The position numbers and the translations under genes were made by a program. Below the pieces are notes generated by a model. It was not told the DNA's origin. It saw only the letters and a program-made list of their open reading frames with translations, and did not search any database. This document shows, piece by piece, positions 21,113 through 24,867 of a stretch of 64,000 nucleotides of DNA; position 1 is the first letter of the stretch, and each line of letters opens with the position of its first letter. The DNA comes from Myxococcales bacterium. GTDB taxonomy: Bacteria; Myxococcota_A; Polyangia; Polyangiales; Ga0077539. The stretch is taken from assembly GCA_030652255.1 (NCBI GenBank), contig JAUSAZ010000196.1, forward strand, positions 10,875 to 74,874, given 5' to 3'.

Positions 21113-22282
21113 ATGAGCGACGAGCTGCTGTCCGAAGGCCTGAGGGCCATTCGCCCCCAGGTCGAGGCGGTGGTCGCCGGGGTGATACGCCCGCGGGCCG
21201 AGGAGGTCGATCGCGAGGGCGCGTGGCCCGAGCACTCGATGCACGCGCTGGCGGGCGCCGGACTGCTCGGGCTCCAGGTGCCGAAGCGCTACGGCGGGCA
21301 CGGGCAGGGGCTGCTCGCGCTCGCCACGGTCACCGAGTCCATCGGCGCGGCCTGCGCGTCGTCGGCCCTGTGCTTCGGGATGCACTGCGTGGCCACGGCG
21401 GTCATCGCGGCCAGGGCCACGCCCCACCACGCCGAGCGCTACCTCCGCCCCATCGCGGAGGGGCGCCACGTGACCACCCTCGCGCTCTCCGAGAGCGGCT
21501 CCGGCGCGCACTTCTACCTCCCGGCGACGACCCTCTCGCGCGACCCCGACGGACGCTGGGTCGTCGAGGGCGGCAAGCAGTTCGTCACCAACGGCGGCCA
21601 CGCCGACTCGTACGTCGTCTCCCTCATCGGCGAGGCGCGGACCGCGGAGTCCGGGGAGTTCAGCTGCCTCGTCATGGACCGCGACCTGCGCGGCATGAAC
21701 TGGCTCGACCCCTGGCGGGGCATGGGCATGCACGGCAACTCCTCCCGCGCGGTGCGCTTCGAGGGCGTGAGGGTGCCAGCCGAGAACCTCCTCGGCGCGG
21801 AGGGAGACCAGAACTGGTACGTGTTCGAGGTCGTCGCGCCGTACTTCCTCATGGCCATGGCCGGGACCTACCTCGGGCTGGCGCAGGCCGCGGTGGACGC
21901 GACGATCCAGCACCTGCGCGACCGGCGGTACGCGCACTCGGGCGAGACGCTGGGCGAGGCCCCGGTGCTACAGCACCGGCTCGCGGAGATCTGGGCCGAC
22001 GTGCAGAAGACCCGCGGGCTCATCTACAACGCCGCGCGCCTCGGAGACCTGGGCGACCCGGGCTTCCTGCCGCACATCTTCGCGTGCAAGGCCGAGGCGG
22101 CGGACACCGCGGTGCGGGTGACCAACGAGGCCCTGACCCTCTGCGGCGGCTCGGCCTACCGGGAGAACAGCCAGCTCGCCCGCCTCCTGCGGGACGCCCG
22201 CGCGAGTCACGTGATGTCCCCGACCACCGATCTGCTCAAGCAGTGGACGGGGCGGGCCCTGCTCGGTCTCCCGCTGCTATGA
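21113..22282 (+). CDS. Acyl-CoA dehydrogenase-fold flavoprotein
   Basis: Typical ACAD N-terminus (REEVDREGAWPEHSMHALAGAGLLGLQVPKRYGG) and C-terminus (TLCGGSAYRENSQLARLLRDARA). Start taken at ATG 21113 (MSDELL) rather than TTG 21083. Confidence 0.85.
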   Translation: MSDELLSEGLRAIRPQVEAVVAGVIRPRAEEVDREGAWPEHSMHALAGAGLLGLQVPKRYGGHGQGLLALATVTESIGAACASSALCFGMHCVATAVIAARATPHHAERYLRPIAEGRHVTTLALSESGSGAHFYLPATTLSRDPDGRWVVEGGKQFVTNGGHADSYVVSLIGEARTAESGEFSCLVMDRDLRGMNWLDPWRGMGMHGNSSRAVRFEGVRVPAENLLGAEGDQNWYVFEVVAPYFLMAMAGTYLGLAQAAVDATIQHLRDRRYAHSGETLGEAPVLQHRLAEIWADVQKTRGLIYNAARLGDLGDPGFLPHIFACKAEAADTAVRVTNEALTLCGGSAYRENSQLARLLRDARASHVMSPTTDLLKQWTGRALLGLPLL

Positions 22283-24867
22283 GCGCCCCTCCGGAAAGCT
22301 CCACGGTGGGATCCGCGCCGCCCGCGCTGCTGCTCGAAGCGCACGACGCCGTGGCGCTGGCCGGGCGCCTCGGCTCCCTCGGGGTCGTGGTCGAGACGTC
22401 GGACGACACCGAGGCCGCCATCGAGGCGCTGCGCAAGGGGGCGGGCGACGCGCAGCAGCCCGCGGTGCTCCTGGTGGGGCCCGGCTGGGAGCGGCCGATC
22501 GCCGTGGCCCGCGCCCTCCACGCCGCCGTCCCCAGCGCCCACATCGCCTTCCTCGCGCGGCCCGACCAGCTCGAGGCGCTCCGTCATCAGCTCGGGCGCG
22601 CGCCGATGGTCGGCCCGCTCTGGTCGCTCACGGCGATGGACGACCCGGCGCTCGCGCAGCGCATCGCGGACGCCGCGCACCAGGTCGCCCACCGGCGGCA
22701 GTTTCGCGCCACGCTCGACCGGATGAACGTCCGGCTGGCGGCCCGGGCGCCGGTCGAGGGGGCCGAGCACCGCCGCCTCGTGCTCTCCGAGCGGCTGCTG
22801 GCCGAGGTGCTGACCCACACCGGCGACGCCATCGTGACGCTCAACCCGGACGGGCTGGTGCGCGACTGGAACCGCAGCGCGGAGAGCCTCTTCGGCCGCA
22901 CCACGTCCGAGGCGGTGGGAAGGCCGCTGGCCGAGGCCGCGACGTGGTCCGAGGACCTCGCCCGCCTCCTCGCAGAGCGCGCGGCGGGCGAGGCGATGGT
23001 TCGCCGACGGCTGCGCTGCGAGACCCGGGCGGGGGTGCGCCACGTCGAGCTGACGCTCTCGCCGGTGCGGGACGACGAGGGCGCGGGCGTCGGGTGGGTG
23101 GCCATCATGCGGGACGTCACCGAGCAGAGCCGCGTCGCCGACGCGCTCGCCGCCGACGCGGTCGTGCTCGGGCGCATCGCCGCCGGGGCGCCGCTCGCCG
23201 AGGTGCTCGACGTGCTGGTGCGGGGGGCCGAGGCGCGCTCCACCGACGGGATGATGGGCAGCGTCCTGCTGCTGGACGAGGGCACGCGGACGCTCCGGCA
23301 CGGCGCCGCCCCGAGCCTGCCCGAGGCGTACCGCCGCGCGATCGACGGCGTCGCGGTCGGGCCGCGGGTGGGATCGTGCGGCACCGCGGCGTACGAGCGG
23401 AGGGAGGTCCGCGTGACCGACATCGCGACCGACCCCCTCTGGACGGACTTCCGCGAGATTGCCGCGGAGAGCGGGCTGGCGGCGTGCAGCTCGTCGCCGG
23501 TCTTCGCCAGCGACGGGCGGGTGCTCGGCACCGTCGCGATGTACTACCGGGCGCCCCGGGCCCCGGGCGCCCAGGACCTCGAGCTGACGCGCTCCGCCGT
23601 GCGGCTCGCGGGCATCGCGATCGAGCGCCACCGCGCCGAGGAGCGCGTGCACGCGCTGCTGGAGGCCGAGCGGGCGGCCCGCGCCGAGGCCGAGGAGGCG
23701 GGCCGGATGAAGGAGGAGTTCCTGGCGACGCTCTCGCACGAGCTGCGCACGCCGCTCAACGCCATCCTCGGCTGGAGCGAACTCCTGCGCCAGACGTCCC
23801 GGGAGCCCTCCAAGGGTCTGGAGGTCATCGAGCGCAACGCCCGCGCCCAGAAGCGGATCATCGAGGACCTGCTCGACATGAGCGCGATCGTCAACGGCAA
23901 GCTCCGCCTCGACGTGCGGCCGGTAGACCTCGCGGAGGTGCTGGGCGCGGCCCTGGAGACCGTCCGCCCGGCCGCCGAGGCCCGGGGCGTACGCCTGCAC
24001 GCGCTGCTCGATCCCCGCTGCGGCCCGGTCTCGGGCGACCCCGACCGGCTCCAGCAGGTGCTCTGGAACCTCCTCTCCAACGCGGTGAAGTTCACGCCCC
24101 GAGGGGGCCAGGTGCGGGCCGAGCTCGCGCGCGTGGACTCGCACATCGAGGTGCGGGTCGTCGACACGGGCGAAGGGATCACGCCGGAGTTCCTGCCGCA
24201 CATGTTCGATCGGTTCCGCCAGGCCGACGCGACGATGACGCGCAGGCACGGCGGGCTGGGGCTCGGGCTGGCCATCGCGAAGCAGCTCGTCGAGCTCCAC
24301 GGCGGGACGATCCGGGTGCAGAGCCCGGGGCTCGGACACGGGGCGACCTTCGTCGTCGAGCTGCCGCTCAGCGCGCTCCGCGCCGCGTCCGAGCAGGGGT
24401 CCGGGCGTCGCCACCCCACGGCCGACACGCCCACCGACCCGACCGACGCGAGCCCCCGGCTCGACGGGGTGCGGGTGCTGATGGTGGACGACGAGGCGGA
24501 CGCCCGCGACATGGTGAAGGCCCTGCTGGAGCGATGCCACGCCAGGGTGACGACCGCCGGCTCGGCGGCCGAGGCGCTCTCGCTGCTGAGGGCCGAGCCC
24601 CCGGACGTGCTCATCAGCGACCTCGGCATGCCCGGCGAGGACGGGATCGCCCTGATCCGCCAGGTGAGGGCGCTCGGGCCCGAGGAGGGCGGGCGCGTGC
24701 CGGCCATCGCGCTGACCGCCTACGCCGGGAGCAGGGACCGCGTGCGGATCATCCGCGCGGGCTTCCAGCACCACCTGGCCAAGCCCATCGAGCCCGCCGA
24801 GCTCATCGCGCTCGTGGCGAGCGCCGCCGGGCACGCTCCGGTAGATCCCGCGAAGCGGTCGACGTAG
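22279..24867 (+). CDS. Hybrid sensor histidine kinase (receiver-like N-terminus, PAS, GAF, HisKA, HATPase_c, C-terminal REC)
   Basis: ATGA overlap with the ACAD stop. H-box FLATLSHELRTPLNAI, N-box LLSNAVKFTP, G-boxes DTGEGI and GGLGLGLAI. REC motifs VLMVDDEAD, DVLISDLGMPGEDG and HLAKP. PAS- and GAF-like regions lie in between. Confidence 0.9.
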   Translation: MSAPPESSTVGSAPPALLLEAHDAVALAGRLGSLGVVVETSDDTEAAIEALRKGAGDAQQPAVLLVGPGWERPIAVARALHAAVPSAHIAFLARPDQLEALRHQLGRAPMVGPLWSLTAMDDPALAQRIADAAHQVAHRRQFRATLDRMNVRLAARAPVEGAEHRRLVLSERLLAEVLTHTGDAIVTLNPDGLVRDWNRSAESLFGRTTSEAVGRPLAEAATWSEDLARLLAERAAGEAMVRRRLRCETRAGVRHVELTLSPVRDDEGAGVGWVAIMRDVTEQSRVADALAADAVVLGRIAAGAPLAEVLDVLVRGAEARSTDGMMGSVLLLDEGTRTLRHGAAPSLPEAYRRAIDGVAVGPRVGSCGTAAYERREVRVTDIATDPLWTDFREIAAESGLAACSSSPVFASDGRVLGTVAMYYRAPRAPGAQDLELTRSAVRLAGIAIERHRAEERVHALLEAERAARAEAEEAGRMKEEFLATLSHELRTPLNAILGWSELLRQTSREPSKGLEVIERNARAQKRIIEDLLDMSAIVNGKLRLDVRPVDLAEVLGAALETVRPAAEARGVRLHALLDPRCGPVSGDPDRLQQVLWNLLSNAVKFTPRGGQVRAELARVDSHIEVRVVDTGEGITPEFLPHMFDRFRQADATMTRRHGGLGLGLAIAKQLVELHGGTIRVQSPGLGHGATFVVELPLSALRAASEQGSGRRHPTADTPTDPTDASPRLDGVRVLMVDDEADARDMVKALLERCHARVTTAGSAAEALSLLRAEPPDVLISDLGMPGEDGIALIRQVRALGPEEGGRVPAIALTAYAGSRDRVRIIRAGFQHHLAKPIEPAELIALVASAAGHAPVDPAKRST

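Follow-up and report, generated by a model that had tools for sequence, protein, structure and literature searches.

The window analysed here is a stretch of 64,000 nucleotides from a Myxococcales bacterium (GenBank assembly GCA_030652255.1, contig JAUSAZ010000196.1, positions 10,875 to 74,874 of the forward strand), and the present work concerns two adjacent genes on its plus strand. The upstream gene (21113–22282) encodes a protein of 389 amino acids with the fold of the acyl-CoA dehydrogenases (ACADs), hereafter called the flavoprotein (P0001), and the downstream gene (22279–24867) encodes a soluble hybrid histidine kinase of 862 amino acids (P0002). The stop codon of the former and the start codon of the latter overlap in the tetranucleotide ATGA (22279–22282), a junction already described in a first-pass annotation of this DNA and read directly in the sequence. 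Both reading frames are intact. No membrane segment was seen in the sequence of either protein, so that the pair looks cytoplasmic. In a strain about 93% identical to the window, represented by contigs from RNA libraries, the kinase gene shows small compensating insertions and deletions within its first codons (window positions 22281–22299); the exact stop/start overlap is therefore not fixed between strains.

The kinase opens with an N-terminal domain of 165 residues (22279–22773), which is considered below. It continues with a PAS domain (22801–23133, residues 175–285), a GAF domain (23191–23625, residues 305–449) that is a lineage-specific insert, a kinase core composed of HisKA (residues 477–537) and HATPase_c (residues 586–698) with the H-box SHELRTP (23707–24372), and a canonical C-terminal receiver (24475–24816, residues 733–846) in which the DD, SDLGMP, T and KP signatures can be read in order. 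The H-box His, the HATPase_c domain and the phospho-acceptor receiver, all with Pfam scores above the respective cut-offs, identify P0002 as a hybrid histidine kinase.

P0001 contains all three Pfam ACAD domains (N, M and C) in the alpha/beta/alpha arrangement of this fold, and its AF2 model (mean pLDDT 86) superimposes on many ACAD structures with TM values of 0.88–0.91. True acyl-CoA dehydrogenases are its best sequence matches (24–32% identity), and the first among them, in sequence as well as in fold, is Ch1CoA dehydrogenase (Ch1DH; 32% identity, TM 0.90 to structure 7p9x). Source databases label proteins of this type isovaleryl-CoA dehydrogenase (IVD). The genome from which the window originates has no fewer than nine further ACAD paralogues of ordinary type, 26–30% identical. 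The best curated family for P0001 is NCBIfam NF049984, that of Rv1679/FadE16 (277 bits, E 2.7e-82; the next family reaches 187 bits). Since the score lies well below the cut-off of 600 bits set for that family, P0001 represents a sister family of Rv1679/FadE16 rather than a member of it; a search of the literature on Rv1679/FadE16 returned omics lists only.

The active site was read from alignments with Ch1DH (7p98) and IVD (4o5m), and the conservation of each position from column counts over a family set of 81 sequences. The segment HVMSPTTD of P0001 aligns with QIYTGTNQ of Ch1DH and with EIGAGTSE of IVD, which brings S369 (codon 22217–22219) opposite T363 of the former and a Gly of the latter, that is, to the position of the catalytic Glu (Glu376) of medium-chain acyl-CoA dehydrogenase (MCAD). 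T363 of 7p98 has been named as the MCAD-type Glu position (PMC9293079). S369 lies inside the invariant loop SHVM[SAT]PTT, and its column, composed of S49/A23/T9, is acidic in none of the 81 members. The second canonical position, the helix G Glu corresponding to IVD Glu254 and Glu261 of long-chain acyl-CoA dehydrogenase (LCAD), falls opposite F245 in the IVD alignment or opposite Y244 in the Ch1DH alignment; column 244 is Tyr or Phe and column 245 is Phe in all 81 sequences. Asp91-Gly92 of Ch1DH stands opposite V93-A94, of which V93 is invariant. None of the three known catalytic-acid positions is thus occupied by an acid in P0001. The first-pass annotation had read the MCAD-type base as replaced in HVMSPTTD and had counted a complete ACAD active site among the findings that would speak against its idea. 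No such site was found: the canonical Glu positions are acidic in 0 of 81 members.

The same annotation had pointed to a Glu at an IVD/LCAD-like position as a possible substitute for the missing base, and this suggestion stands in part. The residue concerned, E239 of NWYVFEVVAPYF (codon 21827–21829), is indeed a near-invariant acidic residue on helix G (E77/D3/Q1, acidic in 80 of the 81 members); it does not, however, occupy the IVD-type position, being located 5–6 residues upstream of it (Y244/F245). By helical periodicity, as far as the sequence alignment can indicate, E239 faces another side than Y244 and T252, the counterparts of the Ch1DH pocket residues N241 and Q248.

The remainder of the site is strongly conserved. 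H366, M368, P370 and T371 are invariant over the 81 members, and this SHVM-x-PTT loop, together with the absence of an acid at the canonical Glu positions, points to selection for a non-canonical site rather than to decay. The active site is apparently one that has been remodelled and then frozen, decay being excluded by the conservation in the alignment. Most flavin-contacting positions are kept (S126-E127, T159, R271, Q287, the Gly pair 345–346 and T371), these being invariant or nearly so, while the Ser-Asp of the GSD motif reads A132-H133; the protein probably still binds flavin adenine dinucleotide (FAD). The counterparts of the pocket residues (L86, G89, M90, V93, Y244, T252, M368 and S369) are hydrophobic. 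Such a pocket would suit an acyl group, and a purely redox function is equally possible. A metal or Fe-S site formed by the invariant Cys and His residues (C81, C87, H91, C92, C185 and C344) was also considered and set aside, because H91 and C81 are general ACAD features and the whole family is very conserved.

The family to which P0001 belongs is both tight and widespread. Thousands of matches were obtained among 5.8 billion proteins, and the best 120 are all 62–85% identical to P0001 and come from several phyla. A scan of one genome per species over 185,579 species returned 360 relatives, of which 80 loci were fetched. These derive from Acidobacteriota, Beta- and Gammaproteobacteria, Deinococcota (Trueperaceae), Nitrospirota, Verrucomicrobiota, Planctomycetota, Armatimonadota, Fibrobacteria, Gemmatimonadota (Longimicrobia) and Myxococcota, so that the pair spans at least ten bacterial phyla. 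Across the phyla represented in the fetched loci the flavoprotein remains 56–85% identical to that of the window. The mean pairwise difference of 0.38 is unusually low, and the carriers include lithotrophs such as Nitrosospira and members of the Nitrospirota.

The N-terminus of the kinase proved to be no less particular than the flavoprotein. Its first ~165 residues are covered by no Pfam or NCBIfam model, and residues 1–170 gave no Pfam match, Response_reg included. The AF2 model (mean pLDDT 86.5) predicts a (beta-alpha)5 domain that a long helix connects to the PAS fold. In a VIA comparison, residues 10–148 reached a Z of 15.0 to 2rjn (rmsd 2.6 Å over 129 aligned residues) and of 12.5–13.8 to NtrC4 (13.8), NtrX, DivK and other receivers; the structure matches obtained in the Atlas are receiver proteins as well. 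When the domain is aligned by hhalign with the C-terminal receiver of the same protein, G67 of the motif AVLLVG falls opposite the phospho-acceptor Asp, in an alignment that is weak (probability 18%, E 1.3e-3). Over 56 partner proteins the listed residues of this column are G27/A11/L8/S4/M2/D1, and no conserved Lys follows beta5 (119–123). The domain is thus, judging from sequence and predicted structure, a pseudo-receiver, i.e. a receiver-like domain that would not be phosphorylatable, in agreement with the earlier reading of a receiver-like N-terminus in which the phospho-acceptor is replaced. Its conserved residues, R78, the motif APM-x-G112-x-x-W115-S and LR143TTLDRAN on alpha5, lie in or near the alpha4-beta5-alpha5 region. 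Only 234 proteins among 1.84 billion representatives were retrieved by a profile search with a threshold of E <= 1e-10, and the domain is N-terminal in all the matches listed. The adjoining PAS fold resembles ligand-binding PAS domains, including that of RpfR with the Burkholderia diffusible signal factor (BDSF; Z 13.3). Two other identities considered for this part of the kinase were discarded: a flavodoxin-like flavin mononucleotide domain at the N-terminus, the best fold matches being receivers, and a photoreceptor PAS of the light-oxygen-voltage type, the motif NCRFLQ being absent from P0002.

The association of the two genes was assessed by running tblastn with the kinase against the stretch directly after the ACAD-like gene in the 80 loci. 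In 75 of them the region matches kinase residues ~20–290 directly downstream, and a further match, in locus L034, was seen separately. Three of the remaining four loci end less than 300 nt past the gene and are untestable; the fourth, L073, encodes a kinase with a diverged N-terminus. With L073 included, a partner with pseudo-receiver and PAS domains directly follows the flavoprotein gene on the same strand in 77 of 77 testable loci. In 26 loci the partner starts at -4 nt relative to the flavoprotein stop, and almost everywhere else the gap does not exceed +40 nt. Neighbouring genes were compared as well, and none besides these two proved to be conserved; the largest neighbour clusters comprise at most 18 loci or reflect close relatives.

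The constant part of the partner is limited to its first ~290 residues, in which the PAS domain is kept together with the pseudo-receiver. Among 60 partners analysed with Pfam, 57 have PAS and 50 have HATPase_c (46 of these also a receiver), 10 carry GGDEF (three of them also EAL), and only two contain GAF. The output is accordingly interchangeable, being a kinase in some bacteria and a diguanylate cyclase in others, and a conserved input end joined to a switching output is the pattern expected if the flavoprotein feeds the input. The closest relative of the window pair (L025, a Myxococcaceae metagenome-assembled genome) has a flavoprotein 84% identical to P0001. Its partner (L025:8863–10491, 68% identical) is devoid of the GAF domain and of the C-terminal receiver of the window kinase, so that the output end has been remodelled even between near relatives.

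The two genes also occur together at the level of whole genomes. Among 401 genomes of the phylum of the window, seven carry the flavoprotein (called at E <= 1e-90), and in six of these the N-terminal domain is encoded directly downstream; in the seventh the downstream gene encodes a PAS-HisKA-HATPase protein with weak similarity to this domain. A PAS kinase therefore follows the flavoprotein in all seven carriers. The other matches to the N-terminal domain in this phylum (~1e-6) occur in genomes without the flavoprotein and are probably ordinary receivers. In the family of the genome (G401) that holds the Stutzerimonas locus L062, 18 of 251 genomes carry the flavoprotein and the identical 18 carry the N-terminal domain, and in each of them the genes are direct neighbours on one strand; neither is present in the remaining 233 genomes. 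The domain is single-copy in the five carrier genomes in which all candidates were scored (5/5). The first-pass annotation had suggested co-occurrence in other genomes, Myxococcota in particular, as the check to be made on the pairing, and these counts bear it out. Moreover, pairwise distances of the flavoprotein and of its partner correlate (r = 0.68; 0 of 2000 Mantel permutations reach this value), with mean differences of 0.38 for the flavoprotein and 0.73 for the input end of the partner, that is, the flavoprotein evolves about half as fast. One protein of a public assembly from another organism, P0122 (743 aa), in which ACAD residues ~20–165 run straight into the end of the PAS domain and are followed by a kinase and two receivers, was examined as a Rosetta-stone fusion and rejected as such, because it is an internal-deletion chimera; it may be either a real deletion or an assembly artefact.

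One reading would be that the flavoprotein is an ordinary catabolic or biosynthetic ACAD, and that the neighbouring kinase or cyclase regulates its expression or its pathway, adjacency then reflecting co-regulation. The best matches of P0001, which are genuine dehydrogenases, and the database label would fit this reading. We nevertheless find it unlikely, since both canonical catalytic Glu residues are missing in 81 of 81 members and the genome is already provided with at least nine ordinary paralogues. Furthermore, the conserved neighbourhood includes neither another pathway gene nor a DNA-binding response regulator, some partners have diguanylate cyclase output, and the flavoprotein co-occurs strictly with one special N-terminal domain.

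We favour instead, with a confidence slightly above even, the view that the two genes make up a cytoplasmic sensory module with the flavoprotein as its dedicated input subunit, whose state is read by the pseudo-receiver/PAS unit of the partner. This proposal is based on the frozen non-canonical site, the strict two-gene synteny with tight or overlapping junctions and without pathway genes, and the combination of a partner-specific, non-phosphorylatable domain of docking type with an interchangeable output. According to this model, the flavoprotein would be made together with a signal-transduction protein bearing a pseudo-receiver and then a PAS domain at its N-terminus, a terminus that would be specialised for the partnership. 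The state of the flavoprotein, either the redox state of its flavin or its occupancy by an acyl-thioester or similar ligand, would be passed on by contact with the pseudo-receiver/PAS unit, and would switch the output, which is a hybrid histidine kinase in the window and may be a diguanylate cyclase in other bacteria. We infer this sensory role from comparative genomics, and with it FAD binding, the physical contact, the way in which the signal flows and the kind of signal involved. The earlier suggestion that the flavoprotein acts as a sensory, redox or acyl-CoA-binding partner of the kinase rather than as an enzyme of beta-oxidation gains support from the missing Glu residues and from the conserved pairing.

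Several observations weigh against such a role. Related genomes are not independent, and the co-occurrence counts hence overstate their statistical weight, even if the pattern recurs in unrelated phyla. The correlation of distances also reflects simple co-inheritance. No natural fusion of the flavoprotein with its partner was found in the databases searched. Finally, the near-invariant E239 could be a relocated catalytic base, comparable to Asp91 in Ch1CoA dehydrogenase, in which case the protein may not be a pure sensor but a working enzyme.

The last point leads to the main alternative, which we regard as possible but less likely: an active enzyme with a relocated acid (E239) might make or destroy a small molecule derived from a thioester, and this molecule might be the ligand of the PAS domain of the partner. 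The proteins RsbQ and RsbP, or RpfF and RpfR, form signal-synthase or signal-processing pairs to which such an arrangement could be likened. The acidic nature of position 239 in 80 of 81 members, the retention by alignment of most flavin-contacting positions, the displaced base used by Ch1CoA dehydrogenase, the nearest relative of solved structure, and the likeness of the PAS fold to ligand-binding PAS domains such as that of RpfR would all be consistent with it. This alternative would, however, leave unexplained why the partner possesses a dedicated, co-evolving pseudo-receiver that occurs nowhere else in the genome. In addition, the conserved neighbourhood of the pair contains no transporter, ligase or thioesterase that could supply or release a product, and the sequence alignment places E239 off the helix face that carries the pocket residues Y244 and T252.

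The surroundings of the pair bear traces of rearrangement. A deletion scar of a second copy lies upstream, on the plus strand, at 14469–14734, as established by blastn self-comparison, alignment and translation: 14469–14676 matches 21052–21259 at 96% identity, corresponding to the upstream region and the first 49 flavoprotein codons, and 14672–14734 matches 24808–24870 at 92% identity, thus including the last ~57 nt of the kinase gene. The interior of this second copy, about 3.5 kb, is absent. The claim that the whole pair had been duplicated locally is therefore not borne out by the present sequence, in which only the scar is left. The scar does not encode an in-frame fusion either, because the frame opened by its ATG at 14530 crosses the junction out of frame with the kinase tail. 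The gene that precedes the pair (19999–20916) has a damaged partial paralogue behind it (25666–26349), with 20461–20923 matching 25895–26356 at 87% identity, and neither of the two has a Pfam match. Together, the scar and the flanking paralogues indicate that a segment was long ago duplicated in tandem.

Between the scar and the intact pair, an open reading frame (ORF) of 1339 codons (14747–18766) with MmeI N-terminal, helicase-spacer, methyltransferase and target recognition domains encodes a type IIL (MmeI-type) restriction-modification enzyme. Near-perfect inverted repeats, two of them related, are present at 18904–19184, 19329–19742 and 32964–33304 (81–87% self-complementary over 280–430 nt). 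Further downstream, a highly repetitive Cys-rich ORF with 18 Stig1-like repeats adjoins a gene for an OmpA/beta-barrel/TSP3 protein (26755–30183 and 27708–31586), and a 3.3-kb tandem duplication (45893–49154 and 49613–52871, 79% identity) holds two ORFs of ~1200 aa each.

The pair was not detected in the one genome of the same genus and the two of the same family that were searched, and the module looks mobile, with a plastic output end. One might then regard the pair as a decaying passenger of a mobile island, whose missing catalytic residue merely reflects loss of function. The position of the genes among a deletion scar, a restriction-modification gene and large palindromes, as well as the negative result in these three genomes, could be taken in this sense. 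We consider such a history highly improbable: both frames are intact, and an identity of 56–85% maintained across phyla, together with an invariant remodelled loop, denotes strong purifying selection and contradicts it.

Matches to the DNA of the window occur in metagenome runs from groundwater. In one biofilm study, contigs of four RNA libraries, about 93% identical, extend from 21021 across the junction to ~23760 and on to 24834. By bridging both genes they provide a weak hint of expression, since contigs cannot prove a single transcript and carry-over of DNA is possible. A scan for consensus promoters and terminators gave no match, a result that is uninformative at the G+C content of the window.

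PAS domains that seem empty are very frequent in cytoplasmic kinases and cyclases, and for most of these proteins the signal is not known. The pair described here offers a clear and testable case in which the input probably comes from a separate flavoprotein recruited out of a family of metabolic enzymes. Should this be confirmed, the ACAD fold would be added to those known from sensor proteins, the pseudo-receiver would be defined as a new docking domain, and a handle would be gained on a signal from redox or thioester metabolism that controls phosphorelay or cyclic di-GMP (c-di-GMP) in bacteria of soil and water, nitrifiers and Stutzerimonas among them. The pair also serves as a warning that the labels isovaleryl-CoA dehydrogenase and AidB-like are probably wrong for hundreds of genes. 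That a separate sensor protein may stand beside a kinase or cyclase is a known principle; the use of an ACAD fold as such a sensor, together with a dedicated pseudo-receiver, is not known as far as our searches reach, and a search of the literature found no paper describing this pair.

The ACAD superfamily itself provides two instructive precedents. Ch1CoA dehydrogenase, a 1,4-eliminating ACAD, has no Glu at either canonical position and uses Asp91 (PMC9293079). P0001 resembles it in this lack, the enzyme carrying Thr in place of the MCAD-type Glu and Asn in place of the IVD-type one, and differs from it in that the catalytic Asp91-Gly92, located in a broken helix of the N-terminal domain, is replaced by V93-A94. 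Ch1DH is a catabolic enzyme of anaerobes, for which no link to a signalling partner is given in PMC9293079. The second precedent is 3-sulfinopropionyl-CoA desulfinase, an ACAD-fold flavoprotein that is devoid of the catalytic Glu and is not a dehydrogenase (PMC9293079). This protein (AcdDPN7; PDB 5af7) is only a distant match to P0001 (72–128 bits). It is a metabolic enzyme, in contrast to the sensor role proposed for P0001, and we know of no signalling partner described for it.

For the N-terminal domain of the partner, the nearest parallels are KaiA and CikA of the cyanobacterial clock, in which a receiver fold without the phospho-acceptor Asp is used for input or docking in redox-related signalling. 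These pseudo-receivers showed no detectable relationship in sequence to the domain of P0002. The latter, unlike those of KaiA and CikA, constitutes a separate family of 234 representatives, which is always followed by PAS and always located beside an ACAD-like gene.

In its working principle, the module is best compared with H-NOX and its partners HnoK or HaCE, and with NosP and NahK, where a soluble cofactor protein encoded beside a cytoplasmic kinase or GGDEF protein controls this partner in trans, and where the sensors are paired with different outputs in different bacteria. Likewise, the candidate sensor gene described here is conserved beside kinases or cyclases of varying output (50 HATPase and 10 GGDEF among 60 partners). 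The likeness does not extend to family, since H-NOX and NosP are heme proteins, whereas P0001 has an ACAD fold and presumably holds FAD, and the dedicated pseudo-receiver of the partner distinguishes the present pairs from those systems. With the chances in our estimation evenly balanced, ACAD-fold flavoproteins of this family may represent a new class of stand-alone cytoplasmic sensors that report the redox state of the flavin or the occupancy by a thioester when they dock on a dedicated pseudo-receiver/PAS unit; gene transfer would have carried them into at least ten phyla, where they would be wired to phosphorelay or to c-di-GMP and amount to a flavin counterpart of H-NOX and NosP.

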